Source of the DNA: Blasia pusilla
Taxonomy: Eukaryota
Assembly (NCBI GenBank): GCA_050084515.1
Contig: CM114271.1
Location: 29,326,001-29,390,000 of the forward strand
DNA: 64,000 nucleotides
Reading direction: 5' to 3'
A model generated the notes under the pieces. It ran no database searches. It was given only the letters and a program-made list of their open reading frames with translations, and had not been told where the DNA came from. The translations under genes and the position numbers were made by a program. Of this stretch, positions 1 through 50,861 are shown in pieces (positions within the stretch are counted from its first letter, which is position 1; every line of letters begins with the position of its first letter).

Positions 1-3000
1 GTCTTTCACACCCAAGTGACTTGTTGACCAGGTCACCCGCCCCTGGTAACCTATGCACGCAGGTTACCAAGGGAAGGGCTATTTTTAGGAGAAGAGCCTT
101 TTGGCTCTTCCCAACCCTATATAAGAGAGGAAGATGGCTTTCCTAAGCCATCTTTCTCGTGTTGGGCCGTTGGAGCACCTTTCTTGTATATGTGTGAGAT
201 AGGACTAGGGTGCTAGCGTCCAGATTCCTTGATAGCACAGGGTGGACGAGGCTTGATATGTCGATGTAGATTGAGGAGTGGAGTTTTAGGCCGGGTATGC
301 CGTTTTTACTACTCTTTATTTTTACATGAGAAAGATGTCAGGGGGCTGGTGGGAATTCGTTGTTTGCAGGTAGGCAAGCGAGTTGCCTTGGTCGGGAGCC
401 CGTGGAGACGTTGGCTAGCATTGTATTTGTCATTTTTCTGTTTGGAAGGCCTTGGGCGGAAGCGCTGTCCGTATTTCTCAGATTTTGCTGGTGCGGATTG
501 ATTGGGGACAACAACAGGGTATAGTGCAGGTTGTGACGGCAAGTATAGCGTCGTCTAATAGCGGGAATGTCGAGATTTAGCAAGAAGGAGAGTTAGGGCA
601 TGCAGCCGCCGGGGGGTTGTCAAGTAAAGGGCGGTTAGGTCACGAAGGCTAGGGTTAGGGTGACGTGCGGCGACGGCACCCCCCCCCCAAAAGTTGGGGA
701 GGCCCATAGGGGTGCGGGCCAAGCCCCCCCTCCTTCCCCCCCGCATTTAGGGCCAGATTTTCCCCCCTCCAACGTGGTAGGACCGGATGTGGTGGAGTTG
801 TAGGGGCTGAAGGTGGTAGCGCAATCCGACACGGTACCATAGTTGGCGGGAGTGATGTGGTAAAGTCGGATGTAGTCCGAAGGGAAGACATGGTTGGGAG
901 CCAACCAGGGTGAGTCAGGTTACATGCACGGAGAGGTTTGCACGACATGATGTTTTTGGGGCGCGACAGGGCGTTGCGAGAGTTGACGATGGAGGGGCAG
1001 TGCACATGATGCCGATAGGTTGTCCGCATCTGTTGACGGAAGGATCGACGTGTTGGTCGAGGAGAATTTTGTGTTGCGGAGGTTGTCATATCACGTGGAG
1101 GAGTACATGTTGACGGTGCAACAGGTTGGAGGCCGTGATCAAGTTACCCATTCGAGTCCCTTTTTCCGCACTTATCGTGTGTGATTGAGAGTGTTGGGTA
1201 TCGGGTAGTAGCTGGTGCTAGGTGGTTGTAGTGATGGTGAGGAGTGTAGATTCTGTTCATATGTAGCATGTGGGTGGATTTACGGCGGTTGCCGAGTAGG
1301 GGTTGCGTGTATGACCCGAGAGAGTGTCACTAGGTTAGGTGAGTCAGTTGGGAGGCTTATGGTGAGCCCAAGTGTTGAGTGTGCGTGAGGCCGGGTATGT
1401 CATCACGGGATTGATGTTAGCATAGGTGAGCTAGTGAGGAGTGTGGGAGACTCTCGGTGAGTCTGAGTGCTTGAGCGGGTGAGACAGGGTTTGTCATCAC
1501 CGCGTTCTTCCAGGGTTCAGAAGAACAGGGTAATGGGAGCAGTAGTAGTGGTGTGACACGGAGTGGAGTGAGATACCGAGGGGTTACCAGTGAGGAGCTA
1601 CCTCAACATCCATCCGTGGCTGGATCGTCATCACTAGACATTGGGTCTGGTGACGAGATCATAGACAGAGACAGTAGTACTTGGCAGGAGATGGACGACA
1701 TGGGCCATCGGGGCATGCGTCGTTTCTCGGGTGCAGTGGGCACCAATGACTTAGATGATTTTATCCAGGAGTTTGACATTTGTGGTGCGACTTCCAAGAG
1801 ATACGGACCCCGACACGGTTCAACCCTTTCATGGCCTGGAAGGGGTTGTTCCAACACTTGGAGGGTCCTCCAATGGATGACTACATGGAGTTTCGATCAC
1901 TATATTCAGTAGAGATCGATGCCTGGAGGATGTATTGGGCTCCAGGGTATGTGTCCACTAGTGGTTGCGTGGCACATGATGGGATTGTGAGAGGAGAGAG
2001 ACCCACACCATCAGACCGGAGACTAGATGGAGAGAAGGATAGTGAGACAAGCGATGTGGCAGAGACCTTTGGTGGTAGAGGGCCACCCAGCTTTAGCCCC
2101 ACAGTGGAGTTCTTCCGACAGTTGGGGAAGAGCTACCAGGGCATACTCACCGACAAGCTGAAGAGTCTACAGGATTTTCAGCGACGATCGGATGAGAGTC
2201 TGAGAGAGGCATTCACACTCATGAGGAGGCTGATCACTGCTACGTATGGAGTGACTGAGGTGTAGTCAGCCCAGTATTGGTACGAGGTTCTGGACCGAGA
2301 ACTACGGAGGAGAGTCCGAGATACAGTGCTGATTCACACAGCGAAGCCCACATTGACGGTGGTCTTTGAGTTGTTTGAGCGTATTGAGCTCAACATGAGT
2401 GAGGAGCAGGTAGTGATCACTGGATTTTCTCGAGAGTCGACGGGTCCATGAGCGACGGTCACCCCACAGGTGCCACAACGAGCACTAGTACCATGGGAGC
2501 GGGCCAGTGTGCCCAGAGAGCAAGGCGGGTACCGTGAGCCTATGAGGCAACGACCCGTACCTACATATGTTTCCTGCAGGGACCGATGTGGTCTTGTTGG
2601 ACGTGTGGAGAGGCCCATAGGCAGAGAGACTGCCCACAGCATGCCAGAGGACCACCAACGCCTCCGATTGCTCAGGAGCCACAGAGGATGGTCCCACCAT
2701 AGCACCAGTGTGACTATTGCCACAGATATGGTCACACTAGGGATAGATATTTTGACCTTCGCCGAGGGGCACGTCCAGAGGTAGGATGAGGGCTTGGGGG
2801 CGGTCGTCCTCGAGGAGGTCGGGGAGTCCTTCTTGGACGTGTTGGTAGAGGACCACCACCAGCCACAGGAGATGGAGCAAGAGCACCAGAGCCGACACTT
2901 CTCTCACGCATTGATCAATTGGAGCAGAGAATTGATGCCATGAGGATGATGCGGCTTAGGGAAGGCACGGAGCTACGAGCAGCTAGTGTGACTCCAGCTT

Positions 3001-3364
3001 CTACCTCTTACCCTGACCCGGGTAAGGATCTCGCCAGTATGGGATTTATGTGTAGTGCAGCCCAAATTGAGGTAGCTGCAGTGGTGCTGCAAGAGGCACC
3101 GAGCCATCGAGAGGTGGAGTTGAGATTGACCCACTAGAGGGGACAGATGGGCGGCAGGCCAAGGTTCCACGACCCGTGGCCTCCTTGCGGGAGAAGAGGG
3201 GGGAAAGGGGGGGGGGATCATACTCATACATATGATCTCCATGTATATGTATGAGTTGATTTTTGTACATGTGTGGATCGACCCGTGTGTGGGAAAGATC
3301 GGTGTTGTGTGGTGTAGATATGACCAGCAATGTATGTTCTGTAGCGATATGTATGCGCACGACA
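1..3364 (+). mobile_element. Non-autonomous Gypsy-related retroelement, family F1 copy 1 (module A partial, gag, module B); left end lies outside the window
   Basis: 1-310 aligns with 24760-25085 and 50290-50580 (TATATAAG at 118-125, AGATGGCTT/AAGCCATCT hairpin). 1140-2800 aligns with 36240-37900. Purine tract at 3191-3217. Ends in terminal motif ...TATGCGCACGACA at 3364. Confidence 0.8.
1553..3137 (+). pseudogene. Frameshifted gag-like ORF with two zinc knuckles
   Basis: ORFs 1553-1912 and 1780-2265 join as LDDFIQEFD/WCDFQEIRTPTRFNPFMAWKGLFQHLEG. Manual translation gives CWTCGEAHRQRDC (~2597) and CDYCHRYGHTRDR (~2710). Homologous copies at 36610-37880 and 42600-43570. Confidence 0.75.
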
Positions 3365-14350: not shown

Positions 14351-16699
14351 CCAAGATTAGGCTGCCACATTGAATGTATTCTTCTTATTTCAAATCGGTA
14401 TGTATATTGTAAACATAGTTAAAAAAAAATAAAATTTCCAATGATAAACTTTTGTAGCCACTCATGTAACTATTGGATTATCTTTCAACTTTATGTGACC
14501 CAATAAAATCTACAACTTATGCCCCTACCCTTCACCCTTGGGCAAGATGGAGGGCGTAGAAAGGCAAGGGGAGGTGCAATGAGGTGTAAGGTGCGAAGCA
14601 AGGCGGGGGACGGTGGCTTAGGGGCAAGACACGTTAGATGGGGCAGGGATGCCGCTTGCCATGCTCCGCATCCCGTGCCCTATTGCACGGAACTTGCACC
14701 GCACGCCTCCCTCTGCCTCCAATCTCCCATTGGTAGAGGATAGGAAAAGTTTCCCATTCAAACAATTCTATCGTATGGACGGACTTAAGTCATAGACAGG
14801 GGCATGGACTTTCCCCGCGTGCGACGTTGTACATGAGTGAGGTTCATAGTCTTATATTGTTTTTCTAAAAGTATTATTTCTAAAAAATAACAAGTGGAAT
14901 AGGATAAAAGAGTATTGGCATCCTAGAGAATAATTTAAAAGAGGTCTAATCCCTTATGAGAGAAATATTCACTTGATTCAAAAATGAAATCCAAACCAAG
15001 CAAAAGAAGCAAAAATAAAACCACTTTACAAGTGAAGAAAACCACAAATTTGACTCTACTTTGTGATTGATATATTTAATTAGAAGTATTTACATACCTC
15101 TAATTAAATTTTCTTCTTCAAGATGTATTTTCAAGATCCGACCCATTCATAAAATCCTTTGTCACGTGTAATTTAATCAACAATATGCATTGTTAATTAA
15201 ACTCCACCACAAATCCAAGTCCATGTAATGGCCCAAAATATTTCCTATCCATCCTCCACCTATATGTAAGATCTCATAGGTGGAGTATCTCAAAGTAGTG
15301 TTTTCTAGAAAACACCACTTTAAGAGGTGGAGAAAGCATCATGAGATATAGTAGGTAGGCTTGGGTCGGGTATATAGGTAGGTTTGGGTTTGGGAATTTT
15401 CTTGTGTTTTGGTAGAATTCTTCTCCCCACCTTGAGGGCGGGGAGAAGAACTCTAGGAGTGTAAGATGCAAGCCCATTTTAGGAAAAAACATTTGTGCGG
15501 AAGAAAATTTTGTAGGTGTGGACATGGATATGAGAAGTTATCCACGTTGTAGACATGGACTTTGTCACCATACAACCCTGTGAAAAACATGGCTCTTACT
15601 TCACCAAGTATTGAAATTTCAGTTAGATCTTTTGACCATACAGGACATACATTTTCGGCAAAAGAATTCTCGATAGGTGTAAGTAAGGATCTATATTATT
15701 ATTGGAGTGTGCCCTTTCATTTTTCAAACATGTCTCGTTTCACACTTGGCACTTTTTCAACCAATAAAATGGCTTGCTTTCTTAACCAACAAGATAGTTT
15801 AGAATCAATTTAAAATGACACTTGAGAATTATGGAGGTAATTTCAACCCTAGGTTACACTAGTGTTGTCTAATTATCATGGTAGAAGGAAGACTTAGTAC
15901 ATAAACTTCTTGAGAATTGATTAAGCTCTCATTCTTGTTGCATGTACTTAAAGGCATATTTAGTTTCAAAGAGGAAGAAATTGTTGGATGTCATATATAT
16001 AATGAAGCTAGCCAATGTGCGAGAGGACCTAATATAAATAAATAATGTGCCCGAATCTGAATTTAATGTATGAATTTTATCTTTTAAGGTTAATTTGCCT
16101 TTCAAATGGATATATAATAAGAAGAAGTGGAATTCTTCTAATGGCAGTTGAACCTCAACTTTTTCTGTTGCTAATCGAGTCAATGATGTGTTTGTGGCTT
16201 AATCAACCCATTTCTAATTTGTATGCAGAGTTAGAGAGGAATCTAGGAAGTTTTTGTCGTAACAAGTTCCCTTGTTTGTGATAGTTCAGCCACTGAACTG
16301 AAGGGCCTTGATTAACCCTCGCAGAAGCCTTCTCATATTTTAGCAGAGGCACACGGAGGTGATCTTGGATCTCTTAAAGGGGAGGTAGTTTAAGGGATTC
16401 TAGGCTGCCAAAGAAGAAATACTCGCGATGAGGGAGGAAATAAGCAATTTACAGGAACAATGAAAATGGGTCCTCGGTGTTTTGGGATCAGAACCCAAGA
16501 ACGAACTCAATAGACCGCATGCATTGACAAACATCACATTTTTGACAAGAAAGATTGACAAAAGTGAGAGAAAGCTGAAAAAGGCAAAGCGCAATGCCTT
16601 GTTCGTAGCCTCTATATTCTGCTTCGCCTCAGAACTCTAAGCTTTGTTTCACGTGGACTTACCCATCAAGACGTGCGAAAGAGTGACTAGAAAATTGAA

Positions 16700-17956
16700 G
16701 GCAAGCTTACAAAATTAGCACCGATTATGGCTTCAAGGTTTCTCCAAGGAGATTCACCTATCTTGATGGATCATATTGCCCATGTAGAGGAGGGGGACTT
16801 GTTATTTCAACAAAAATTGAGATCTGCACGAGCTCTTCTTCCTCTTGCTACACAAGTAATTCTACCCCTTTTCAATCAACTGATTACGGAAGGGCTTGAT
16901 CGACTTCAAAAGCATATCTCTGAGAATTTGCATCAAATCAACTTTTCCAGCATTCTCTCCAAGACATCCTTTGACACTAATCGAGCTCGTCTACGTTCAT
17001 GTGCAGGTACCAGAGCGGGGGCGTGGCTTACTACAAATCCTATTATTCTTCCATTTCCTCTTCCTCGAAGTATATTCTCGACAGCTATGCGATTACGTCT
17101 TGGACTTCCCCATCATTCTCTCTTAGGTGTGTCGAATTGTGTATGCGGGGATCCCATTGATGCCAAGGGTATCCATATTCTCCGATGTGCACATGGTGGA
17201 GAACCAACGACCACACATGATGTCATTAGAGAGGCGGTAGCATCGGTGGCTCGTATTGCAGTATACATCATTGGGCAAGAGCAACTCCACGTCCTACCTT
17301 CAACCACACAAGCAACCTTTCGTCGGAAAGTGGATCTTGTTATGTCTCGAGGTGGATTCCAGACACTAGGTGATGTGGTGGCTGCTGATCCAACACGTTG
17401 TGACTTGGTGTGTCGAGCTGCACATACCAAAGGTTTGGCGGCCGAAACTGCAGCAAGAATGAAGGAGTTAAGTTATGTTGTAAGACATGTGCCTGATGGA
17501 TTATTTCCTTTTGCAGTGGAAGTATTCGGTCATTTACATGTGTCTTTTGATACTTTCCTGAAAACATGTGCTCACCACTCCCTCGAGAATCATCACCTTG
17601 CCCCTTCCCGTAGTCCTTCTCTCTCGGTAGTTACTCCTTATTTTTGGCAATGCATCTCAGTGGCCTTACAACGTGCACAAGCCTTGGCATTGATACGTCG
17701 TGCGGAGGTGGTGGGGGATCGTCCGCCTCGTCGTCCATTCACGACTGACCAACCACTTGTGTTCTTGTCAGATTTGTTTCAAGCTATCAATCGTGTAGCT
17801 CGTTGAACCGGTGTTTGCGTTGGCTTGTTACCATTTTCTTTTTGCATTCTTGTATGCATTTTTTGACTCCTCTTTTGAGTTGTAATTACCTTTCTTTGTC
17901 CTCTTCTGAAATTTATTTTATAATAAAGTGGATATATATATATATTTATTTATTTA
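16700..17956 (+). mobile_element. 5'-truncated CRE-like non-LTR retrotransposon
   Basis: RLE ORF, then a ~120-bp T-rich 3' UTR, AATAAA at 17922-17927 and a (TA)n/(TTTA)n tail; no RT domain upstream. Confidence 0.7.
16727..17806 (+). CDS. C-terminal part (zinc finger plus restriction-like endonuclease) of a CRE-clade non-LTR retrotransposon polyprotein
   Basis: 359-aa ORF with RARLRSCAG..AGAWL, AMRLRLGLP, CVC..H...C finger, HDVIRE, RKVDL..D nuclease core, FPFAVEVFG and ISVALQRAQA; this layout is typical of CRE/RLE elements. Confidence 0.8.
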   Translation: MASRFLQGDSPILMDHIAHVEEGDLLFQQKLRSARALLPLATQVILPLFNQLITEGLDRLQKHISENLHQINFSSILSKTSFDTNRARLRSCAGTRAGAWLTTNPIILPFPLPRSIFSTAMRLRLGLPHHSLLGVSNCVCGDPIDAKGIHILRCAHGGEPTTTHDVIREAVASVARIAVYIIGQEQLHVLPSTTQATFRRKVDLVMSRGGFQTLGDVVAADPTRCDLVCRAAHTKGLAAETAARMKELSYVVRHVPDGLFPFAVEVFGHLHVSFDTFLKTCAHHSLENHHLAPSRSPSLSVVTPYFWQCISVALQRAQALALIRRAEVVGDRPPRRPFTTDQPLVFLSDLFQAINRVAR

Positions 17957-34315: not shown

Positions 34316-34791
34316 TAGGTGGGGATGGAGGGATGAGAGGTTAGGGTCCCTTTTCTAGTACATTAAAGGTTTTGTGTGAAAACCTTTAATGTACTATGAA
34401 GGGGTTGGATCCTTGGTTCCCAATTGGTGGGAAGCCTGGCCAGGTTCAATTCCTGCCAAGGATGTGAATGTGGGATATAGGGGGAGTGAAGACAGGAGTA
34501 CCGGGACTTAAGAAAAATGTCAAATGGATGATCCTTGGCTCCCAAGTGGTGGGAGGCTTGCCAGGTTCAAACCATGCCAAGGAAGAAAGTTGAGATGGTG
34601 ACTTTGGAGAGTTAGGATGTTTGGTTGGTAAAGTTTCTATAGCATCCAAGTTATGCAGAGGAAAAAAATTCATTATTATCTTCCATTACTATCTTCCATT
34701 ACCGATTAAAATCTGTAAGTTGTGCTTCAGACTCCTGGTATGCCAATGTCAAAGAAGAAATTCATTACTTTTTGCTTGTGCTCTCATGTAG

Positions 34792-34896
34792 GATGCAAAT
34801 AAACAGTCACACAGGGGTTTCGGCTTTGTAACCTTTTCTGATGAAGGTGCTGCTGAACGTGTTGCTCTCCGCACACACGAGCTTCTTGGTCATCAG
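34792..34896 (+). other. Captured host exon encoding part of an RRM RNA-binding domain
   Basis: AG at 34790-34791, then 105 nt encoding DANKQSHRGFGFVTFSDEGAAERVALRTHELLGHQ, then GT at 34897-34898. Contains the RNP1 octamer RGFGFVTF. Absent from hAT copy 1. Confidence 0.85.
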
Positions 34897-37800
34897 GTCT
34901 GACTTCTAGGTCCCTTAGATATGAGCTTTGTTAATCTAGATAAGGAGTGGCTATCCAAGAGTGGCCCAAGTTGCGTTATGTCCCCCAATGCCCGGATTAT
35001 GTCCCCAATGCCGGTTATTTTGAAATTGAGCCGGAAATTGGCTGGCGCCTTTCAAAAGAATAGGAAATGTGCTCTTAAAAATTTTTTATTTTCAGAAATT
35101 GACTGTAACAAAATTAAAATATCAGAAATCTACTGCCTGTTTTAAAAACTATCTTCCATTACCGATTAAAATCTGGGAAAATCCGATTCCGGTTAGGAAA
35201 AACGGTAACTAGCTGGTACCGAGGAAAAAACTCCCCGGACCCTGGGCTGCAGGAGTCGGGTAGAGTAGAGTGCGGGGCCCAAAGGGAGGCAACTGGGTCA
35301 TGGGAGCACAAGGCTAAGGGTGGAAGGTGAATGGACACGGGCTCATAGGGAGCCACGTGCACGCATTAAATGAGGACGGAGTTGGGGTGTGCTAGAAGGG
35401 CAGCAAGAAGGAAGAGAGAAGGGGACGGGGAAGGAGGAGGAAGGAAGCGGGCCAAGGCTTTCCCCGCCCTCCCCACACACACAAATTTAAGTCTAGGTCC
35501 AAAGAAGGTGGGATGAGAGAGAGGGTCAGGCAGGGCCGTGCATAGGCTAGCGAGCCCTAAGACGCGGATAAGGAGGGTGATGCGACTAGCCAGGGGGGAC
35601 GGAGATCCGGAGGAGTCTGGTGAAGGAAGGAGTGAGGATGGGGGTCGGGGGCCCTAAAGGAGAAAATGCCAAGGAAGGAGGTTAGAGGTTGCTCGCGGAT
35701 GGAACTAGGTTGGTCGAGAAGAGAGGAGAGCGACTGCATAGGGATGCGGGCTAGTAGGAGCGCCGGAGGGTGAAACAGGCCAGGGAGTAAGGCTGACGGA
35801 GTTGGCCAGACGTGGTAGCTATGGTCCGAATGTGGTAGGGCCGGCACTAACGTAGTAAAGCCACTATGGACATGGTTGCGTAGGCTGACTATGGTATGTG
35901 AGCTATTAGGGTAGGTAGGTTACCATGGTTAAAGTTTGTTGGTAGTTGGGATCCAGGGTTGATTCTAGTTACCATGGTTGGAGAGTTTTCCGATAGACGT
36001 CATGTATTGGCAAGCATGGATGGAAGTTGTGTGTTTAGTTTGACTGCGACCAGAATGGTTGATTTGCACTGAAAATTAATGATGGAGAGTTGACAAAAAA
36101 ATGTTGGTATGTTGATGCCGAGGGGTTGTCTGCATCTGTTGACGAGAGGTTCGAGGTGTTGTTCGAGGAGAGTGTCGTGTCGTAGAGGTTTCCGCACCAC
36201 ATGGAGAAGTCAAGGTTGATGGTGGAGAAGATTGAGGGCGGGCGTGATCAGGTTACCCATTCGAGTCCCTTTTCCCGCACTTATCTTGTGTGATTGAGAG
36301 TGCTAGGTATCGGATAGTTGCTAGTGTTAGATGGGATGGGCATAGCGATGCTGACGAGTGTAGACTCCTTTCATGTGTAGCAAGTTGGTGGATATATGGT
36401 GGTTTCCGAGTAGGGGTCGTGCGTATGACTCAAGAGTGTTAGTAGTTTAGGTGAGTTAGTTGGGAGGCTCATGGTGAGCCCGAGTGTTGAGTGTGCGTGA
36501 GGCCGGGTATATCATCACGGGATTACCATTAGCATAGGTGAGCTAGTGAAGAGTATGGGAGACTCTTGGTAAGTTTGAGTGCTTGAGCGGGTGAGACAGG
36601 GTTGTCATCATGACGTTCTTCCAGAATTCAGAAGAATGGGGTAGTACAAATAGTGGTAGTGGAGTGATACGGAGTGGTGTGAGGTACCGAGGGGTTTTGA
36701 GTGAGGAACCATCCAGACTCCCATTAGTGGCAGGATCGTCATCACTAGACAACGGGTTTGATAATGAGATCGCGGACGAGGAAAGTGATAGGTGGAGAGA
36801 GATGGATGACATGGGCCATCTGGGCATGCGTCATTTCTTGGGTGGTGTAGGCAACGTAGATTTAGATGACTTCATCCAGGAGTTCGACACATGATGCGAC
36901 TTCCAGGAGATACAGACCCCTACGCGGTTTAACCCTTTTATGGCATGGAAGGGGTTCTTATAGCACTTGGAGGGTCCGCCGATGGATGATTACATGGAGT
37001 TCCAATCTCTATACTCTATAAAGATTAATGCTTGGAGGGTGTATTGGGCTCCAAGGTATGTGTCCACTAGTGGCCGCGAGGCGTATGATGGGGTAATGAG
37101 AGCAAAAAGACCTACACCATCAGCCCGGGAACTAGATGGAGAGGATGGAAGTGAGAGTGGTGAGGTGGGAGAGACCTCTTATGGTAGAGGACCACCAAGT
37201 TTCAGTCTTATAGTGGAGTTCTTCCGATAGTTGGGGAGGAGCTACCATGGCGTGCGGAATGATAAGTTGAAGACTCTACAGGATTTTCAGCGGAGATTGG
37301 TTGAGTCTAAGGGAGACATTCACTCGCATGCAACGGTGGATCGTTGCCACATATGGGGTGATTGAGGCGCAATCGGTAGAATATTGGTATGGGGTGCTAG
37401 ATGAAGAGCTATGGAGGAGAGTTCGAGATGCGATGTTGCTTCATATGGCAAAGCCAGATTGAACGTGGTCTTCGAGTTTTTTGAGCGGGTAGAGCTCAAC
37501 ATAAGTGAGGAGTAGGTGATGACCACGAGATTTTTTTGGGATACGACAAGCTGAGGAGTAGGAGTAGACCCACAGGTGCCCCACTATGCAGTGGTACCAC
37601 GAGAGCGGGCGGATGGGCCTAGATAGCGGGACAGGTATCATGAGCCGATGAGGCAACAGCCCGTACCGACATATGTTTCCTAGCAGGGACTAGGGTTGGA
37701 TTGTTGGATGTGTGGTGGGTCACATAGGCAGAGGGATTGCCCATATGCATAAGAGAGGGCCACAGGAGCCTCCGATTGCTTAGGATCCACAGAGGATGGC

Positions 37801-38739
37801 CCCACCACAGTTGCAATATGATCATTGTCACCGATATGGTCACACTAGGGATAGGTGTTATGATCTTCTTTGGGAGGTACGTCAAGAGGTAGGCATAGGA
37901 CTTCGGGGCGAGAGAGTTGGTGGAGATCTAGTTGTTGGATCCCTTTGTATATGCGTGAGTATTTTATTTTTTTGTGGATCTACCCGTATGTTGGGGAGAA
38001 GATCGGTGTTGTGTGATGGGTAGATGTGACCAACGATGTGGGTTGTGTAGCAAGGTGTATGCGCACGACAACATAGGCTAGTCTCTCATGACTTGGGACA
38101 AACTTTCTAGTTGGTTTAAGAACCTCAAACAACATTTACACGCCTAGCGGTCCCAACTATCCAATGGACCTCCAATGAGTCCCTAACCGAGACTGACTAA
38201 AATGAGTCACGGGTCAGATACCAAATGTGGCTTTTGAAATCCACTCCCTTAGATTAGGTTTGGGTTTTGAGTCCCAACGCCAAACTCCCATTTCGCACCC
38301 TTGAGTTGCCCTTTAGCGCCTAAAGTGGGATTTGGATCCCAAGAATCCTTGGAGACACTCCCCCTTACTACTAATTTTGGGGATCTCCACCCTCCCCCTA
38401 ACTTTGGGGAAAAGACAGTCATGCCCCTCATTCAGGCCCTCAACCCAACTCTCCATACAATCGTTTTCAAAAAATATCTTAGCTTCTACTTGTGCATTTT
38501 TGGAGATCTTTGGTGTGTTGGAATTGGCTTGCATAAGCTTTCTAACGTCACCTTTCTTTCCCCAAACGTATCTTAGAACTTAACGTTATGGTCCAAAATA
38601 CAATCAAACTCCAAACGGTAGTCGTGTTCGAATTCTGGTTCTGACCTCTTTGGCAACCAACCTTCCTAGACTCAACTTATCTCAAGTCTTGGTTCATCTT
38701 TGGTCTAGGTTTCTTCATCACCACCATAAACGCATGAAA

Positions 38740-40320
38740 TGCACAAACTCTTCTTCTCTTGGGAGAAGAAGCAAAGAGCACAAAATGTGGAAGACCTATA
38801 ATCATCATAATGGACACTAACCCTATTGCTATCGGGTGGGCAGTTGGGCCAAATATTGCAGAAGGAAGAAGGTTTGCAACAAGGTTTGGAGCTTGTGCAC
38901 TCACAGAACAATAGAGGAGGTATCCTAAGGTAAAGAAGGTGCTTTGGGGAGTTGTGACTGCAATGAAAGTTGAGAAGGAGTATCTTATGGGAGCTTATGT
39001 ATTGCTTGAGGTTGATTGTCTACCTTTGTTACGTATGATTACAAATTGTACAACTCCTGATATAGCCATGTTACGTTGGATAGCCTAAATTAGGTCCTTG
39101 AATCCACAACTTATGCATATAGCTGGGAAAGAGAATTCAGTGGCTCACATGTTGTCTAGAGCTAGATTGAGTCAAGAAGAAGATATGGAGGCAGTTGAGA
39201 TAGATGTAGATGATGTATATGTGTGGCAAGTGTCATCTCGAGAACAGAATGGCATAGAGGATGTTCTAGCCTTCAAAGAGAATTTTTATGAGGGCAAGTT
39301 AAAAGAAATTGGGCGTTGTTTAAGCACTCTTCAAAGAGACGGAGGATGGATAGACAAGTTCAAGGAGATTCGACATAAGACGTATGGCTATCTACTACAA
39401 GATGGATGTCTTTGGAAGAGGCCAAAGAGGAGAGATGGAATGCCCTTGAGGGTGGTGGATGACAATGGGACAAAAATGCAAGTGCTCTAAGAATTCCACA
39501 ACTCTTTATGGGCAGGACACAGAGGTTGCCCATAATTGGGAAACTTTCACCAAGATAAAAGAGAGGTATTGGTGGAAAGGCATGTACAAGGATGTTGAGA
39601 GATATATTGGGTCATGTGTTGAATGTCAATTTCAATAAAAAATCTGGGTGAGAGACGGACTTAAACTCATGTATCATTTTTCTATTCATCATTAGTGGGT
39701 TATAGATCTAGATGCTATGCCACTAGGTTTTTGGGGAATGCCTTACCCAGTCCTAGCACGTGAAGAGTTGTCAAACTTTGTAGAAGGGAGGTCTTTACAA
39801 GCTAAAACAACAGAGCCTATACTTAGAAGATATTGTTGCTCAATATGGGAGTGTGGGGAGAATCCGTGCAAATAGAGGTGAGTTGAATGCGGAGGAAGCA
39901 TGAGAGTTCTTCAAGAGATATGGAGTCTAGCTAAGATTAACAACCTCCATAAATCCGAAGGCAAACGGCAAGAGAGAAAGGAGACATCCGCCAATCATTC
40001 AAGCATTAGTAAAGGCATGTGGAGACCGTTATGCTGATTTGCCTAGATTGATTCCATTGGCTTTATGGGCAAATAGAAGCACTCACAATACCGTTCCAGG
40101 GTTCATGCCCACAGAGTTGATGACGGGTCAAAAGTCAATAATGCCAGAAGAAGGAGATATTCCCACTTGGATAGGTTTGTCGTGGGAGAACGAGCTTGAT
40201 AAGAAAGAGCTCCTAGCATTTGAAATGCAGCAGCTAGAGCAGCGTGAAGGAGATATCCCAGAAGCATTAGTCAAAATAAAGGAAGCAAGGTTGAAAAATA
40301 AGGAGTGATTCAACAAACTC
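38740..40320 (+). pseudogene. Decayed Ty3/Gypsy pol fragment (RNase H plus integrase)
   Basis: DTNPIAIGWA..., VDCLPL, LRWIA, IAGKENSVAHMLSR, H...AGHRG, ERYWWKGMYKDV...SCVEC, LALWANRST..GFMPTEL. Confidence 0.8.
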
Positions 40321-40399
40321 ACCAACTTCAGAAGGCTCCAAATGAGCCTCATCCGATGTATACCCCCCTTGGGCACCTCCATAGGTGACATGTACACAC

Positions 40400-40860
40400 A
40401 CATCACCTCCCTCCTAGCAGATCACTACCCACCTATAGGACACCCATACTTATTATTAGCTCCCTAACAACAACACATGTGGTCCCCTCATGAGACCAAC
40501 TACCAACTAACCCACGACCCTACATGTCCAAGTGGAGCCATACATGGTTGGGAAGGTCAACCTCTCCAAGGTTGCCACTCTTCATAAAGGGAAGGATGAC
40601 CTACACTCGTAGGTAACCTCCTAAGAGCAGGTCATACATGATCTCTCAAAATAGAGAAGTACAAGGCCCATCTAAAGCCTTAATACTTTCTCGCCCTACA
40701 CCTCATCTACCATGACATATACCTCCAACAGAGGGAGAGCTTGAGAGCTCATTCTCTCTTTGTTGAACCTCGTGGCATGCATCACGCGACACAGCCATGG
40801 TCCTCCTTGCCTTTTGTCTGTAACCCAAGCCTCTCATTAGGGAATTGGGTTTGGTTTGAC

Positions 40861-40929
<69 letters not shown>

Positions 40930-43900
40930 TGTGTGTGTGTGTGTGTGTGCACACCATGGAGAGCTTGTTGTCAGACCTTGGAGAGATTTGATTGATTTAC
41001 AAAGAGAGAATGAAGGAGTGAGAGAGCTTCAATCGAGGACCCCGCTAGTGACTTGCTGTTGTTGCAGGTTGGCGTCCGTGTTCCCCGTTGATCGGCTTGT
41101 GGGAGTGCTCAACGGAGCAAGAACCACTCAATTTTGTTGTTCAAATTTTTGTTGGGAGAAACAAGCGGGGAAGCGCTGTTGAAATTTGTGTAGGAGAGTA
41201 GAATTGAAGGGCTTTACAACTGTCCCCATCATTTTTTTTTTGGAATATCCAATGGAAAAGAAAAAATATTTTTGTAGATCGAGAAGCTGTGCACCCTCTA
41301 CAACCCTGGTGTGTGATTTGGAGCTGTGACCATAAAGTTATGGCCGATTTTGAAAATTGCCATGGATAGACCAATTTTTGGGTAAAAATCGTCAAATCCT
41401 AAACCAACCGCCGCCGCCGCCGCCACCACCAACCGCGCTGTCACTATCTATATCATCATCATCGTCCATAGTATTTCCCTCACCATCCACGCTATCGCTG
41501 CCACTTGCCACCACCGTCGTTGTTCAAGGCCGCGGCACCATTTAGGGCCACCTCAGGCCGTCGTCGTACCCGGACAGGGTTGAGCCAGTATGTGTCAGTA
41601 CCACTTGTACATTCCCCGACTTCAAAAAGGTAAACTTTTGATTCATGGGGTCCCAATTCCTTTTCCACTTTACTTTGTCTAGAGATTGGAGCCGCTCGAC
41701 GATGATCGAGTACCGTGCCGTGACACACATAGCCGCAACGTTGCCGCCGATTGCCGCGCCATGCCGCTCGTGATTGCACCTCACTGTCTCAATCATGGAG
41801 CCGCACCATCACTGAGTAGCAAAGCTCCCCAATGATGCTATTGAGGAGGGTATGTTGTTGAGTGCCTCACCCCATTCTCGAGTGCCGTGCCGTTTGTAGT
41901 CGTTCCATGTTGCACCGTACTATTGGATCCGCACCGCACTGCACATCAAGGAGATTTGAGCATAGTTAGTACTAGAGGAGTACAACTTGCTGATTGGAGG
42001 ATTTTATTTTCACGACCGAGTTGGGATTGAGGCTTGCAGTTGGTGAGGGGTGACATTGACATTGTTGTCAGGATACCCATGTATTCTAGTCTTTCGTCCT
42101 ACACGTGTGAGAGAATTTCGAGTATTGGGTAGTTATTTGAGATATTGAGTTTCATGTGGATGCTAAGAGCATCCATGATGTATGGTTTTAGGGGACATAG
42201 ACCTATGTGAGATGTTGAGGGTATGTTCTATAGATGGGACGATAAGATAGCAGTTGATTTTCCGCACCATGGCACTTGTTGCTGCATAATATACGTCTCA
42301 GTGAGAGGGAGTCTAGATTGAGTGTCGTATGTCTAAGTTGAGGGCTTGAGAGTGATTGCATGAGAGGGTCACAAGGATCATCACTTCATCCTTTTGGGAC
42401 TTTGAGAGGCAAGGTTGATGGACCTGAGAGTTGCTCTAGAGGATTTACGCGGAGTGGCGCGAGGTTTCAAGGGTGTCCACGTGAGGAACTGCCTTGACCT
42501 CCTTCTATGTCGTCTTAAGACAAGGAGGAAAGCATAGAGGATTTTTTTTAGTGCATTACCGTACACATTGAGTGGTCCCACCGCTTGGGAGTACAAGATA
42601 TATGACCCGGGTAGAGGAGTGAGTAGGTTTCCGGGTGCTATAGGCACGATAGAGTTGCACGACTTCATTGCAGAGTTTAGGAGTTGGTGTGATTCACAAC
42701 GGCCTAGGAACACCACAGAGTTTAACCCGTTTACAGCATAGAACGGTATGTTCTAGAATTTAGAGGGGGCGCCCATTGAGGATTACCATAAGTTATCCTA
42801 GAGATATGCCCACACTATGTGTCATGGATGGAACCGCTCCTAGATGAAGAGGAGGAGTAAGGAGATGCTACTTCCTCTTCCACTAATGGTGTGTTTGGAG
42901 GGATAACTTGAACTGAAGCAATTGCATCATGTAGTCGGGTTTGTCCTAGGTTCAACTCGGTGGTTAAGTTCTTTAGAGTTGCGGACGAGCTACCAAGGGG
43001 TACGAACGTGAAAGTCGCAGAGCATCCACAACTTCCATAGGTGCCCGAGTGAGAATTTCCGTGAGGCCTACACTCACTTGCTTCGTTTGATTAGCGTCAC
43101 TTAGGGGATGACAGAGTCCCAGGCTATCCAAGCATGGTACGCGATGCTTGACCAAGACCTGCGAAAATGAATGAGGGTTGGGGTACTTCTTATGCACACC
43201 TCACCTACGTTGACTGATGTTTTTAAGACCGTAGAGAACATTGAGCGCAACATGGCTGAGGAGAGCGTAGCAACCATAGGTTCTGCACAAGAACAGTCAC
43301 GATTGCTTGCACCACCAATGCAGCAACATGGATTTTGAGAGAGGTCTATGGCACCACAAGCTTAGGGATGATACCAGTAGGACGTGCCACAAAGACCTAC
43401 GCCATCCTATGCGGCTTGGCATGTGGTGGTGCCCATCATCAACGCGCTTGCACCCATGGCGGTAGTGGAGGCGTGTCTTAGCATTGAGGAGGAGACGGGC
43501 CTGTACCTAGAGTGTACCAATGTGATCATTGTTAGCAATGTGGGCATACACGCGCTAGGTGTTTCAACCTACATCCCGTGGGGGAGGTAGAGTTCCGTTA
43601 CCTAGACGCGTCAAGGGAGACGCTCGGTGTGAGGCTGGGATGGCTGCTTAGATACAGCAGTTGCAGCAGATTGCCGCTATGGCATTCAGGTGACCTGACG
43701 CCGGATCAATGGCATCGACAGCATATGAAACAGCCAGAGACATGAAGGATCCTAGTTGGATGTGCGGGATCGTATAGATGGAGATAGCCATTGTTGTTAC
43801 ACGTGAAGCAGCAAGAGACATGGAGGATTCTGGTTGGATGTACGTGACTATACACATGGGGGCACCCACTGTTGTTATGCGTGGAGTAGCCATAGAGTTG

Positions 43901-46892
43901 GATTCATAGAGAGGGGAAGCCAAGAAAGAGACCAGGCTTCCTCAGTCTTTTATGTTGTCTGAGGCGATGAGGACCCCATCAATAGGTCCTGATCAAAGTT
44001 CTCGGAGAGTTGATGTTGTTGGTGTGCACGCATAGAGGGTGATGGGAGAAACATGTGCGACCACTCCTAATGCTCATGCTCGAGAGGAGCATGTGTCTAG
44101 TACATTGTCCCGGGCGACCACTACTATGTTACGCGCTCCATTTTTTTCTGCTTCCGATGTTATGACATTGGGAGGTACGCCTGCCAAGGTTTTCTGACTA
44201 GCCACTACACTATGTAAGCGTGCAATTGGTGTTCTTGCATCACGATCAGAGGTGATTTCAGAGGAGGTGATGGACCTGGCCTTGGAGCCTGTGCTTGGTC
44301 CGTCCACCTTAGATTCATGGGAGGTTGCGGTTTCCAGGTGTTGTGTTGGTGGATAAACGAGGAGAGATTTCCTAGTTGGTGAGTCCAAGAGGTAGATTGT
44401 TCATCTACAGCGCATCTTGTTAGATTTGGGAGTGCAACCCCTGATGTTGGGGAAGGCGACATTCACAGGTTTGGGCCTAACTAGGGCGAATGTGGAGCAT
44501 TGTCCATTCTGGATACAGACATCCTTGGGTGGAGTGGGTACCAAAAAATTTATCACATGAGAGGAGGTTGTGGTGAGAATTTTCCTATGACATCTTATAG
44601 ATGAGTCCGTGGTGCGAGCCAATATGATAGTGATCGATGTTGAGTCCTATGACGTCTTGGTTGGTGGAGCAGTGTTATACCCGATGGGGTTTATTGGATT
44701 ACTGGGAGGAGTGATTGTCCTACGGACCACAATAGTAGTCAAATGATGGGCGACTTAGCTCATTCCTCGTTTGATTCACGGGTGGAACGATCGAGCGACG
44801 GCCAAGAGATATGGCGACATTAGTAGCATTCAACAACATCATCATGTGGCCTAATGATTTGATTGAGGGGCATATCCATGCAGAGGAAACACTTGCACCT
44901 AACACTTCTAGGGAGAGGAGTGTTATGGTAGCTGCATCATTCTGTGGAGGAGCGGTGCCGTTGTGGGGCTTGAGTGAAGAGCTTCGACTCTTGGCCGATG
45001 GGCATATGCACACAGCGTGGAGTGAGGTGTTTGCACGAGAGCATGATGGATGAGAGGAAATCGAGGAAGCGGTGAGTGCTACTATGGCCCCCTTGGACAC
45101 CACACCAATTTTGTGGCGCATCCCAGAGAAGGATATTTGCGAGTTGGATCTCTTTGGAGGGATCAACACTTGATTAGTTTTTGTTTTGGAGGGAGGACTG
45201 CATGTGCAAACAGTACTTATATGTTGAGATTGATGATGCTGCAAGGCACGCTTCACTTCACCATGTGGTGCAAGGCACAAACCAATTCACCACTACATCT
45301 CCGATTTCCCAACTTGTTATCCACGTCCGCTATATAGGGGTACTAGAGTTTCCTACCGAGTGATATTTCATTGTTGGGGGCGTAAGACTTGGAGCGAGTA
45401 TGGACCATAGATTTTTTCATTACTGGTTGGTCGTGTCAAGGCAAGTCGAGTGTTGGACGAGGTAGCGGTTTGGCTGACACTCGATCGAGGTTATTTTGGG
45501 AGATGATGCGCGCGGATCTTGCAACACTTGTAGGAGCATCAGTAGCTTTCTCTTGCATACATTCTCTTGGGCGATTCGAGGTGCCTTGTGGTGACGAGTG
45601 CACATCAAGTTTACGCATGGATCGACCCACAGTGTTGTTGGATGCAATTAGTGTAGGTTCATGAGGACATCTTGCGTATCTTTGGTGGACCAACTTGGTG
45701 CCACATGAGGTATTGCGGAGGACGTATGCGAGACTGGAGCACCCCTCCCATTTGTTGGTGGATTCAATTCTAGATCTTAGTCGTCAATCATAGGAATTGA
45801 GCCACGAAGATCAACCATCGTTGACTGTGGCCAATAGGATTGGCAAGCCTTGGGCAACCTTTCCCACAATTGTAAGCTTTTCTACTTCCTATGCATTCAA
45901 GGAGGTCGTGCTTGGCTTGGTTTGGGATGACCAGGTACTACGGTTGGTGGAGCCCAATGCCAATGAGTGAGAGTGAGCAATGGAATTCCCCACATGAGTG
46001 ACGGCAATATGGTCATTATCAAAGGTATCATGACATCATGTCTTGGGTCAAGCGATGGACCTGAACTACTTGAAATCTTAGGAGTAGTTGAGCAACGTTG
46101 TTTGAGGTTGCGACACATGACAATTGTTGCGTTGGTGAGCCCTCTGCCTACCAAGATGGTTGAGGCACTGGCTTGGGGCAAGATCCGAGGAGATCGACAA
46201 ACCATTGACAACATGGGTCGTCGGGAGAGACACCCTTGGACTTCTTGGGATTTTTTGCAGGTACATTGAGAGATAATAGCCATAACATCGAGCGTGGTTC
46301 AAAGTACTACACGTGGAGGAGATGAAATTTTGCAATTTGTTGTAGGGGAGAAGTCAAGTTATGTTGTTCGAGATGGGGTTGCACCATAGCAACCACCGAT
46401 ACCCATGCCCAAGAGTCTTACCGTAGTCACGATGGAGACTTAAGAGTCGTATCACGTCTGATAGGATACATCAACAAAAGTTTAGTAGAGCGCCTTCAAA
46501 AATACTGGAGGATAGCCTCAAGAGGTCAAAGATGACCTGCTAAGGCCACGGGTAACCTAAGAGAGCAAGTTTCCCCTTTGTCTCAGCTCATTTGAAGCCA
46601 CATAGATAAACTTACTATTTTAGATAAGTTTCTATTTGGAGTATAATCTACTTTCTAATTTTGGAAGTGCCCTTGATCCACTACAACAAGTCAAGAGCCA
46701 AGGAGGTGACCTACAAGCATAGATTACCTTGGAGAGGGCTTGGGAGAGGGAAGGGGATATACCTCCAAGAGAGAGAGCTCGAGAGCTCATTTTCTCTTTG
46801 TTATACCTCTTGGTATGAGGCAGCGGAGCTATGGTCCTCCTTGCCTTATGTGTTTAACCCAAGTGCCTCATTAGGAGAGTGGGTTTGGTTTG

Positions 46893-46947
<55 letters not shown>

Positions 46948-47119
46948 TGCACACCATGGAGAGCTTGTTGTGAGAGATTTGATTGATTTTAATTGGAGAT
47001 ATTTTGGTACTTCTTATCTCGTTGTATGGATTCCATGAGTTAGAATGGGATTGTGTATATTTGTGTGTATGTTTAATTACAATGATATATGATGTGTAAC
47101 GATGTGTATCTGCACAACA
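40400..47119 (+). mobile_element. Gypsy-related retroelement (family F3, related to F1): A', gag, protease, decayed pol, A', B'
   Basis: 40595-40996 aligns with 46531-46990, both containing (GA)n. Gag at 42600 (ELHDFIAEFRSWCDSQ..FNPF) is homologous to F1. Protease-like ILLDLGVQPLMLG at ~44415. The right copy starts TATCACGTCT (46450) and ends TGTATCTGCACAACA (47119). Left boundary uncertain. Confidence 0.7.
40863..40949 (+). repeat. Compound microsatellite (GA)n(GT)n within a terminal repeat
   Basis: Direct reading; the paralogous (GA)n is at 46897-46943. Confidence 0.95.
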
Positions 47120-47302
47120 TCCAGATATGGGCCCTAAGTTGACAATTGGAGAGCGGTGCCGAATACATCAGTTTCTTAGGGGTCATAGGAGTTGTTTTGC
47201 ATTAAGTATGCATGATTTGGGTACACAGAAGGCTGTCCAGGGATCTGCATTGAGTTTTCTAGTGACACGTCGATCTTTCAACGACTCTATAAGTATAGTG
47301 AC

Positions 47303-48360
47303 ATGGAGAGGGCTCTGCTTCAATGTAGCAACCAAGACTTGGTTGGAGGAGGACTAATGGAGATGTCGCATGGAGAGTATGCATTTGCCATTATCATGCC
47401 TACCAAGAGAGATGTGCATGCCATGTGGACGCATAGGCAGATGTGTGGAGATTACCGACCTATCAATCAGCAGACAAAGTCCGATAGGTTGCCATGGCCA
47501 CCCGTGAGGAGATCTTTGATGTTATTGGGCATGCATTCAGTATGTCTTCAGTTTGTTGGATCTTCGAGCCGGATACCATCATTAATGGGATTGGCCAACT
47601 TCTATCGATGGTACGTCAAGGGTTTCAGTTTGATTGTGAAGCCGTTAACCTTCTTGACTAAGGTGGATTGGGAGTGGCAATGGGGGCATGAGCAAGAGAA
47701 AGCATTTCAGTTGCTCAAGGAAAGGTTTACGTGTGCGTTCATATTGAGGAGACCGATCAGGGTTTGTCCATTGCAATTGCATATCGATTGGAGCATGTTG
47801 GGGCTTGGATTCATGCTCATCCAGCATGACGATGAGGGTAGAGAGTTCATGGTGGTTTACGCTAGTTGCTTGAACAATACTGCAGAGGCGAAGTATAACT
47901 TGTATGAGGATGAGTGCTTGGCTGCAGTGTGGGCTATCGCGCATTTAAGGTGTTATCTATTCGGCAATCCCTTTACCATTATCACTGATCATCAAGCACT
48001 TATGTGGTTGATGGACTCCGACAAGCTTATAGAGAAGCTTGCAAGGTGGGCTCTTTGTTGCAGGAGTATAATTCCTAGGTGGTGCATGGATTTGGGACGT
48101 TCAACCAGGATGCAAATGGTTTGAGTCGTAACCTATGCCTCAGTCAGCGAGATGCGATTGGAACTCGTTGGCATGGAGAGAATGATGAGGAGTTGGTTCC
48201 AAGATGGCACGCATCAGCCTATTTGGGCTTGTTGGCTATGGAGAGCCAAAGGGTTGAGACTTCGATAGTGAGGTCTGATGGAGAGTGCTTAGATTTAGAG
48301 GCCGGTGAGGAGATGACAGATGGCCGACATATTCCCGAAGATAAAGTAGTCTTGGATTAG
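47303..48360 (+). pseudogene. Internally deleted Ty3/Gypsy pol fragment (RT N-terminus fused to connection and RNase H)
   Basis: MCGDYRPINQQT, GLANFYR..VKGFS, LHIDWS..GLG, VVYAS, ECLAAVWAI, TIITDHQAL, KLARWAL. The YxDD RT core is missing. Confidence 0.85.
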
Positions 48361-49949
48361 CTGCGTACTGGCCAACAAGCACGAGTATGCAGCTACTCCA
48401 AGATAGCTAAAAATGAGTTAGCAAAAATTACCTACTCATTATTTGACTCGATTCATTAAACCTTCAATGAAAAGAGGATCTTTTCATTTTCCAAATTGTC
48501 GGAGTATCTCATCTTGAGATAAAATTTTGTAAACTTCATCCCCATGGTGTATCTTGCTCTCTTCAAAAGTTTATGGAAAAAAGAATTTTTGACCAAAAGC
48601 TCAGAAATTGCTAAGTCAAAACATTTTAAAATAGACGCACACCATTAAACCTTTTAGCAAAAGATGGGTCGATTGATGGATGAAGCATTTTTCCACCACA
48701 AATCATAACTCGCCATGAAACTATCGCTCCCTTGGTGGTAAGGAAAGTTTCTATAACTTGCATAGAATATATTTTTGAAACTAAATGGGCGATAAAATTT
48801 TCTCTCCATAAAATGACACTTTCCAATTTGACCTTCAATATAAAAATCATTGCTTTATTAGTGAGAATGTTACAAAAAGGAATATCTTCAAAATAATATT
48901 CTTCCAATAATCTTTACAAAACAAGTATGCTACAACTATTTCTTAATCCGTTTCACTAAAATCACCAATTGCTCTACTAGTCTAGGTCTATTGTGGGTCC
49001 GATGGGTTAAGATGTAGATGATAATTTGACGACTCAAGAGTTATAAGTGGGATAGATTACCAACGATTTCCCATTGCAATTGTTTCATCATCGGAGGAAA
49101 TGTATGAACTATCCATGCCATTATTGATGGGTTGAGAGTTTGGAACAAGGTGATTGACAATATCATTATCATTAGGCTCATCTACTAAGGCCACTCTTTC
49201 AATATTCAAAGATTGTGGAGGATAATCCCTCATAGGTTCACTAGACTTGTGGAATAATTTTAAATTCCTAGTGGTGTGACAATCCGAAGGTCGTAGGTTG
49301 TGTTAGCAAAATTTTTGGGTAGATCCACTTCAATTGAAGTCCTCCGTTGTTGCTCTTCCTTGTGCTTTCAAATCCAATGTTCCATTACATCGTCATCTTC
49401 GTCTCTTCCAAGCCCCTCGGAGTCAAATTTTTCAATGTCACCAATATGAATATCATGCCTTCCTTCGGTGCCATAAATTCCTCCCTTGGTGCTATAAGTC
49501 CGCCAAGCGCGTGATAGGCCCGCCCTTAGCTTGGGTGCCTGTGCTTGGCCCGCCTCCAACGTGCACTCAATGTGCAAGCCCGCGCCTGGCCTGCACCCAG
49601 CTCGCTAGGCCCGTGAGGGAGCCCGCCCTTATCCCATGTGGCGACTGTGGCCCGCCTTTAGCCCCCACCCTTCATCAGAGCCCGCACTTGTTCCCGTAGA
49701 TGGAGCCTGCATGATTGACAAGGGCACCAAAGAAACCCGGGCTGGCGATAGGTTTTCCATGTCCATTTTCATAGAACCTTTACCATACATATTGTGTGGC
49801 ATTGTGTGGAGCAGGGTATGAGAGTGTTAGATCTCCCAGAGGGATCAACACAAAGGCTATTTTCAATGTTGGAGTTTTGTGGGGATGAATCGGATAACAA
49901 CACCCATGGTGCTAGATGTGTATATGATAGTAGATCAATTCATGTACAT

Positions 49950-50723
49950 ATGCGTTTTCTTTCTGGAGTTAGGAGGACCCAACTGCCAGCTAGGGATTGG
50001 TTTTGGGGTCTCGGTATTTTGTTGATGAGTGGATCGACCCATGTGTTGGGAAGATTGGTGTTGTTTGGTATGTTGATGTGACCAGCGATGTGGGTTGTGT
50101 AGCAATGTGTATGGGCACAACAGCTGTCACATCTTAGTTAGATGTAGGTAGAGTTCTATTGCGTCGACACCATAGAGGGTCAATAGGTTGTTCAGATGTA
50201 GCTTTGTCTTGAGGTATCGGATGAGGTTGGCGATAAGTTTGTTGCATCGAAAACATCGTTTATTGCAATTTTGCTATTTTGGTCTTAGTCAGTAAGGTAT
50301 CCCATTGACCGAATCAATGGTCATCTGGTAACTTGTGCACGTAGGTTACCGTTGAAATGACTATTTCTGGGGAAAGATCCTTTCGGCTCTTCCCAAGAGT
50401 ATAAGAGAAGGAGAGATGGCTTTCTCAAGTTGAGCCTTAGGAGTATCGCTCTTGTCTATGTATGTAGGAACTAGGGTGTTAGCGTCTAGATTCTCTCATA
50501 GTAGAGGGTGGATGTGGCTCAATATGTCGTTGTAGATTCAAGAGAAGAGTTTTGGCCGGGTAAGCCATATTGTTTTGATTTTTTGTTGTGGGGTCTCTGT
50601 GTATATGGGTGAGTGTATTTCGTTTATGAGTGGATCGACCCATGTGTTGGAAAGATCAGTGTTGTGTGGTATGTGGTGTGTAGATAACGATGTGGGTTGT
50701 GTAGGGATATGTATGCGCATGAT
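49950..50723 (+). mobile_element. F1 terminal modules in B-A-B order, without internal domain
   Basis: B ends GGGCACAACA (50122), followed by GC. A starts TGTCACATCTT (50125) and runs directly into a second B ending GCGCATGATA (50723). Confidence 0.75.
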
Positions 50724-50861
50724 AATCATTAGCCAATTTTTAAGTAATACAACAATATCACTCAAATAAAAAATAAAAAGGAAGTAAACTCCAAAGTTAT
50801 CCATTATAGAATTATAAAAGAATCTTTTTTTGTTTTGGGATATTTTACTTTCAATATATCA

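Follow-up and report, generated by a model that had tools for sequence, protein, structure and literature searches.

In a 64,000-nucleotide stretch of Blasia pusilla DNA (assembly GCA_050084515.1, contig CM114271.1, positions 29,326,001 to 29,390,000 of the forward strand; hereafter the window), decayed retroelements carry one sequence module, A, upstream of gag and another, B, towards their right ends. We conclude that both modules belong to a streptophyte Ty3/Gypsy lineage with a C5 cytosine methyltransferase in its pol region, and that integrated copies follow the plan A1-PBS-gag-(protease)-DNMT-RT-RNaseH-integrase-PHD-Grun-B1-NN-A2-B2, where PBS denotes the primer-binding site, DNMT the DNA methyltransferase, RT the reverse transcriptase and NN two variable bases. 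To this joint reading of lineage and repeat plan we assign a probability of about 0.7. The asymmetry of the termini is a trait of the lineage and not a product of decay, and the integration enzyme, judged by its domains, is a DDE integrase and not a tyrosine recombinase.

Self-comparison of the window places module A at 1-322 (cut by the window edge), 24591-25085, 40717-40998, 46757-46989 and 50125 to about 50582. The first three copies lie upstream of gag, as stated in a preliminary description of this DNA, in elements that we call el1 (1-3364), el2 (24591-38070) and the DNMT element. A profile search with the B copies returned exactly five matches, all on the + strand (E 8e-41 to 1e-22) and ending at 3364, 38070, 47119, 50122 and 50724. 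The five copies and their absence between A and gag agree with the preliminary description, but its statement that B always forms a right end does not hold for the internal copy at 49996-50122. Further details of that description were recovered: A of the F1 type starts with TGTCAC and contains a TATA box (118-125 and 24866-24873), each followed by a hairpin; left and right A copies part abruptly after GATTT(T), and past the boundaries of A′, the module A of the DNMT element, similarity does not exceed that of shuffled controls; and no TGG-type PBS follows A in any of the three leaders. The copies in the window are all old, nested and broken, with 71-86% identity between them (blastn self-comparison), and the full A1...B1-A2-B2 plan was read from related metagenome loci together with short-read junctions.

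The 3′ tail of an F1-type element, overlooked in the preliminary description, lies at 49677-50724 (+). The end of its internal region, with the G run CTAGGG at 49990-49995, is followed by B1 (49996-50122), the spacer GC (50123-50124), A2 (50125 to about 50582) and B2 (about 50583-50724). Reads from the source species, comprising one whole-genome shotgun (WGS) run sampled at about 1%, one DNA contig set and two RNA sets, were placed on 31001-51000 at a likeness of at least 80%. Where B ends at 38070, 941 reads give a consensus that goes on with GC+TGTCAC, just as at 50122-50125; its agreement of 0.42 would be expected were flanking DNA to follow about half of the B copies. Upstream of the B copy at 46992, 1978 DNA and 98 RNA reads show internal sequence with a G run at its end, the arrangement of 49970-49995. 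We had also considered that B is generally followed by pol, since the window enters pol at both 38071 and 47120, and rejected this, because most reads pass from B into GC+A or into diverse flanks and because pol is absent to the left of el2.

An alignment of 20 homologues served to retrieve related loci from metagenome contigs, 80 in all. When the 29 among them with long pol matches were compared with themselves, the order A1...pol...B1-A2-B2 appeared in nine distinct loci, including L056, a member of a second family that is colinear with gag, pol and B of the window. The A and B profiles of one set of loci, group M, were scanned over all 80 loci and detected modules in 37, corresponding to 36 distinct loci. 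Their 3′ ends read B-A-B in 17 cases, single B in 15 (counted with at least 550 nt of further sequence) and B-A in one; two are cut by the locus end and one is absent. Complete A-int-B-A-B elements, where int is the internal region, number ten (nine of group M and L056), and complete A-int-B elements five. The latter, L001, L015, L023, L040 and L063, are full-length, pol-bearing copies and about as common as the A-int-B-A-B form. Within each element the identities of A1 to A2 and of B1 to B2 parallel each other (80-94%). At the left end A1 passes into the leader with no B between them, and B is found upstream of A1 in none of 16 left ends, in line with the earlier claim that B is never copied there. 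Two identical long terminal repeats (LTRs) of U3-R-U5 structure are thus not what these elements carry: the left end has A only, the right end B-NN-A-B or B. Better-preserved copies elsewhere likewise lack A+B at both ends, which upholds the earlier view that the asymmetry is inherent and did not arise by deletion or chimerism.

The enzymatic equipment is that of Ty3/Gypsy. The closest homologues of the RT-RNaseH open reading frame (ORF) are Gypsy polyproteins of the liverworts Calypogeia, Marchantia and Riccia and of Closterium. Among 54 homologues, 33 contain the integrase core domain rve, four the DNA_methylase domain PF00145 and several a PHD finger, while Phage_integrase occurs in 0 of the 54. 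Between A1 and B1, locus L017 encodes a gag knuckle, DNA_methylase, RVT_1, RNaseH, Integrase_H2C2, rve and PHD. The Gypsy order of RT, RNase H and DDE integrase, preceded by a gag with CCHC knuckles, is therefore found in L017, and gag and RT_RNaseH also in the window. The preliminary description had proposed a search for a tyrosine recombinase (PF00589); there was no match on either strand of the window elements, in L017 or among the 54 homologues.

The module junctions are sharply defined. In the related loci a run of 6-9 G directly precedes B1, and B ends in ...CACGACA, followed by two variable bases and the A start TGTCATG. The corresponding junction in the window is GCACGACA / GC / TGTCAC, with the palindrome ACAGCTGT at 50120-50127. 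A2 and B2 adjoin without a gap: next to the final base of A2 stands the very base of B that comes directly after the G run at B1. Between diverged families the A start and the B end are conserved, but the B start and the A end are not. The elements end in TGTC...GACA. Next to the A1 start and to the last B end lies a 4-bp target duplication, whose two copies are identical in 3 of 12 cases and agree in at least three of the four bases in 7 of 12, compared with 0 of 132 and 5 of 132 for mismatched-locus controls. L056 is flanked by CATA/CATA, and a solo A-B unit in L052 by AAGT/AAAT. The scoring of target duplications advised in the preliminary description thus gave a positive result for the related loci.

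Immediately after A1, in the window copies and in several related loci, come bases that can pair with a site inside A, termed S (for instance CATCTTTCTCA in the window type). The complementary stretch of this PBS and S measures 10 nt (el1), 11 nt (el2) and 15 nt (DNMT element), lengths reached by 10, 5 and 0 of 2000 shuffles; in L005, L014, L018 and L056 it measures 11-16 nt, which 0-1 of 1000 shuffles attain. The pairing is preserved by four different sequence pairs; S and PBS therefore covary between four families. S lies 25-32 nt downstream of the TATA box in the three window copies and equally in six of the eight group-M loci scored (L005, L014, L017, L018, L030 and L050), and it is paired with the PBS in the minimum-energy folds of all six RNA sequences taken to start at S. 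These features make it quite probable that transcription starts at S and that the 5′ end of the RNA primes the minus strand, as in Tf1. Such self-priming would account for the missing tRNA primer site. Non-standard priming had been suspected from the outset; a tRNA is indeed probably dispensed with, but a self-complementary PBS is of the kind known from Tf1, Sushi and Tcn1.

The motif TTGCAGGT(A/T)GGC, described earlier for the leaders, is present in all three (364-375, 25124-25135 and 41061-41072). In both families it lies 25-60 nt 3′ of the PBS and sits in a small hairpin in RNA folds. Roles in packaging, in dimerisation or in the structure of the primer are possibilities.

How an element of this build might replicate can be derived from its priming sites. 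With the PBS located after A and the plus strand primed before B, established retroviral rules of strand transfer lead to a complementary DNA (cDNA) that begins with the B start and finishes with the A end. Self-priming combined with plus-strand priming at the G run would accordingly produce a linear cDNA with the repeat B-NN-A. The chromosomal copy, however, extends from the A start to the B end and contains the abutment of A end and B start in its interior; it is therefore a circular permutation of the expected cDNA. We tentatively propose, at odds of no better than about one to two, that each copy is a circular permutation of its own cDNA and that the DDE integrase opens the joined molecule at an internal palindrome. 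Two steps would be required, which we regard together as conceivable but somewhat short of an even chance. The cDNA ends, A end and B start, would be joined, whether by circularisation or through host repair once integrase has cut and inserted; and integrase would act at the conserved palindromic GACA-NN-TGTC junction in the PBS-proximal repeat. As this repeat would become double-stranded long before the distal one, its earlier availability could account for the missing other permutation. The A...B copies (el1 and el2) and the A+B unit at 46447-47120 may be one-repeat products or later recombinants (B1xB2 or A1xA2).

Several observations weigh against this interpretation or its parts. A two-repeat circle cut at random, at one palindrome or the other, predicts the alternative form A|B-NN-A-internal-B with equal frequency, and this is seen in 0 of 15-16 left ends, so that either the choice of site is biased or the joining model is wrong. 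About half of the 3′ ends carry a single B, and direct products cannot be told from later recombinants among them. The G run is short and no classical purine tract. S-PBS complementarity stays within chance in five of the ten loci scored (L010, L017, L022, L050 and L025, the last with its boundary set wrongly in the scoring) and is marginal in L030 (23 of 1000 shuffles). The RNA reads list only one start position, located elsewhere, and gave no usable start or end positions. Within the 64-kb window no element is complete, and no target duplication is recognisable at the window copies, el2 being flanked by ACTC/ACAT, nor at the 674-bp unit 46447-47120.

The main rival dispenses with joining altogether: reverse transcription alone would build A1...B1-A2-B2, using B1-NN-A2 as a bridging template from which the two termini are restored, in the manner proposed for DIRS, PAT and Ngaro elements, and integrase would insert the linear TGTC...GACA DNA. 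The repeat plan is indeed that of PAT and Ngaro as outlined in PMC4157794, only a single permutation is seen (the alternative in 0 of 15-16), and the TG...CA-type termini with the 4-bp duplication suit a linear substrate. Yet the PBS after A1 and the G run before B1 predict cDNA ends at the B start and the A end, neither a primer for synthesis from the A start or the B end nor a route to the A2|B2 joint by reverse transcription alone could be derived on paper, and the two bases that meet at this joint are precisely the one that follows the G run and the one that precedes the PBS, so that we consider this route unlikely, if worth serious attention. A tyrosine-recombinase retrotransposon of the DIRS order, PAT/Ngaro type, would have the split direct repeats A1-B1A2-B2 and may carry a methyltransferase, albeit an adenine-specific one; the absence of Phage_integrase from both strands of the window elements, from L017 and from all 54 homologues, together with the presence of rve and H2C2 integrase domains and of a 4-bp target duplication, makes such an identity highly improbable.

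Equally remote is the explanation that these are ordinary LTR elements with A+B at both ends, whose window copies lost the left B and PBS by deletion or chimerism. Copies as old (71-86%), nested and broken as these would allow it, but the same A-to-leader junction recurs in two diverged families and at every one of the 16 left ends in related loci, a functional-looking PBS follows A directly, and the read consensus runs from B through GC into A and not from B into a PBS. B might instead be a short conventional LTR in its own right and A a 5′ untranslated region that begins with the PBS (B-NN-A-internal-Grun-B), the 5′ LTR having been lost. A G run before B, a B end in CA with a 2-nt spacer resembling a U5/PBS border, and the frequency of B-GC-A in the reads fit this arrangement. 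Against it, none of 16 left ends has B before A1, the target duplication abuts the A1 start, A2-B2 follows B1 in 17 of 36 loci, and the covarying PBS lies after A and not at its start; we give it very little weight. Hardly more plausible is that gag-only copies do not inherit B but receive it in each cycle when strong-stop DNA from an autonomous helper transfers to their RNA. Being without pol, el1 and el2 must depend on the enzymes of a helper, but autonomous copies have the same plan, and under self-priming it is the A end, rather than B, that strong-stop DNA would carry. We also set aside tandem arrays and segmental duplication; the flanks of el1 and el2 share no similarity.

The elements el1 and el2 are gag-only, non-autonomous copies, 77-78% alike over A, gag and B; since their flanks are unrelated, the termini are real. 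In el1, module A (1-322, +; 76.9% identical to that of el2 by blastn) has lost about 200 nt at the window edge. Sequence and complementarity mark a TATA box at 118-125, the putative RNA start and self-primer site S at 149-158 (+) and the 10-nt PBS complementary to it at 328-337 (+). A decayed gag with two CCHC-type knuckles follows at 1007-2802 (+; 78% to el2 gag, and matching the gag of L056), then a purine/G run at 3190-3217 and module B at 3218-3364 (+), which ends in GCACGACA and borders on an unrelated flank. No pol follows gag, which makes el1 a non-autonomous gag-only copy. In el2, module A (24591-25085/9, +) starts with TGTCAC and contains the TATA box at 24866-24873 and S at 24897-24907, with the PBS at 25090-25100; gag (36113-37910, +) is joined straight to module B (about 37920-38070), giving the A...B form. 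No pol domain was matched by Pfam in either element, and no pol was found in the left flank of el2. Non-autonomous LTR elements such as TR-GAG are comparable in having gag and terminal modules but no pol; they possess two LTRs, whereas el1 and el2 have A on the left and B on the right.

Two nested hAT copies (26986-29603 and 31946-34585, +; 86% alike; Pfam zf-C17orf113, DUF4371 and Dimer_Tnp_hAT) interrupt el2 and are not part of the retroelement. Their transposase-type ORFs at 27092-29344 (750 aa) and 32165-34315 (716 aa), both on the + strand and open from stop to stop, lie within a 4.97-kb tandem duplication and are covered by RNA reads; nearby, RNA reads have sharp loose ends (34790 and 34896, agreement about 1) that hint at splicing or at a variant transcript. 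The el2 leader contains three to four plant-type telomere repeat units (TTTAGGG) at 25200-25232, and that of el1 a shorter TTAGGG-like stretch near 650. The sequence at 38071-40310 (+), a fragment of a different Gypsy lineage with RNase H and integrase H2C2 and core domains (Pfam) and 23% identity to protein P0001, is only the flank of el2. It has the top RNA depth (114-152) of the read-covered stretch, but these reads all differ from the window at several sites and so represent transcripts from other copies.

The DNMT element begins with a 5′-truncated A′ (40717-41013 with its PBS, +). This A′ lacks its first ~310 nt, and upstream of a loose end at 40731, 910 reads depart from the window. S lies at 40749-40763 and the PBS at 40999-41013, directly after the A′ end. 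Gag (42420-43571, +; tblastx against el1 gag) and a region upstream of the methyltransferase (44096-44692, +; tblastn) belong to the same element. The C5 cytosine methyltransferase domain at 45293-46072 (+; also found by tblastn) matches Pfam DNA_methylase (PF00145) at E 6.6e-4, short of the curated cut-off, and the corresponding part of the Marchantia protein P0005 shares 47% identity with the window over 268 aa (tblastn). The stretch 42420-46441 contains many stop codons. The preliminary description let this third element end at 47119; instead, pol continues to about 48369 beyond an inserted unit. Sequence at 46441 is joined to that at 47121, with five bases between, by 839 WGS reads (415+424), 44 RNA reads and seven contigs, which identifies the 674 bp at 46447-47120 (+; A′ 46447-46991, B′ 46992-47119) as a separate, full-length A′ plus B′ unit inserted into pol between DNMT and RT; in most genomic copies the element thus leads without interruption into RT at 47121. 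The Marchantia protein, which has DNA_methylase, RVT_1 and RNaseH domains, aligns in the same order on both sides of this gap (44096-46072, then 47121-48192; tblastn). Beyond it, 47121-48369 (+) encodes RT with an internal deletion, RNase H (Pfam RT_RNaseH, E 5e-27; tblastn) and the start of the integrase, where the element is truncated; read depth per strand class drops at 48343, from about 1100 to about 25. We first took the purine tract at 46730-46756 for the polypurine tract of a 3′ LTR and rejected this reading, as it lies inside A′ in most copies (loose end 40731). A (GA)n/(GT)n microsatellite occupies the presumed R region of A′ at 40855-40958 and 46888-46947, with differing lengths, and a tandem duplication of 78-bp period lies just after gag at 43722-43902. 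Across gag, DNMT, RT and RNase H the depth is about 900-2200 with both strand classes summed, the least covered bin having about 3; by rough estimate the family is very abundant, with perhaps a thousand or more copies, and it is transcribed.

Elsewhere in the window, a 371-aa open frame at 16691-17806 (+) has no Pfam match, and a 520-aa open frame at 55987-57549 (+) with three multicopper-oxidase domains, laccase-like, is probably a single-exon host gene.

Standard LTR finders seek two identical LTRs, a tRNA PBS and a purine tract, and will mis-delimit or miss elements of the present kind in bryophyte and charophyte genomes, including retrotransposon-borne DNA methyltransferases. The elements also make it possible to test how cDNA ends are defined and whether the substrate of integrase can be an internal junction or a circular or joined intermediate. 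If the permutation model is true, a retroviral-type integrase reproduces a split-repeat logic otherwise known only from DIRS elements.

The kind of element is already on record, and the window contains decayed copies of an abundant plant Gypsy lineage. A literature check, recommended in the preliminary description, led to a precedent in KnitGypsy-Dnmt3 of Klebsormidium nitens (de Mendoza et al. 2018, PMC5890265), whose repeats are DIRS-like (A-coding-B-A-B) and combined with Gypsy domains according to the legend of Fig. 4c. The same repeat plan is found here in the window tail at 49996-50724, the left ends, nine group-M loci and L056, and the likeness, as far as that description goes, extends to a Gypsy pol with an embedded Dnmt3-type C5 methyltransferase and to a streptophyte host; occurrence in a liverwort-like genome, very high copy number and gag-only derivatives set the present elements apart from it. 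The legend presents the repeat plan and does not cover the PBS, G run, termini, duplication or mechanism. A 2026 preprint mentions streptophyte 'Gypsy-DNMT3' in passing, and a search of the literature for these names and for split direct repeats with Gypsy and integrase, to which the supplements of PMC5890265 did not belong, found no treatment of the mechanism. What goes beyond the account in that legend comprises the self-priming PBS, the G run, the junction with its palindrome, the 4-bp duplication and the argument for a permutation.

Self-priming is known from Tf1 and Sushi (Lin and Levin 1997, Atwood-Moore 2006) and predicted for the plant elements Tcn1 and TAR, as cited in PMC6317226. As in Tf1, Sushi and Tcn1 (as presented there), a tRNA PBS is lacking and the repeat is directly followed by a PBS that can pair with the presumed 5′ terminus of the RNA; those elements, however, have two identical LTRs and a chromodomain, in place of split repeats and an integrase ending in a PHD finger. 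Within the DIRS order, PAT and Ngaro elements are defined by their split direct repeats (A1-B1-A2-B2; PMC4157794). The preliminary description had set this comparison aside, yet the plan is exactly A1-internal-B1-A2-B2, here with a DDE integrase and a 4-bp duplication. Like PAT, Ngaro and TOC-type elements, the present ones have an internal repeat pair downstream of the enzymes, and some of the former carry a methyltransferase, which in the DIRS order is adenine-specific and here of the C5 type. In the parts of PMC4157794 used here, those elements have a tyrosine recombinase and no target duplication, whereas ours combine a DDE integrase (rve and H2C2) with TG...CA-type ends and a 4-bp duplication. 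Split direct repeats, treated so far as a hallmark of tyrosine-recombinase retrotransposons, here occur together with a DDE integrase, a self-priming PBS and a 4-bp target duplication.

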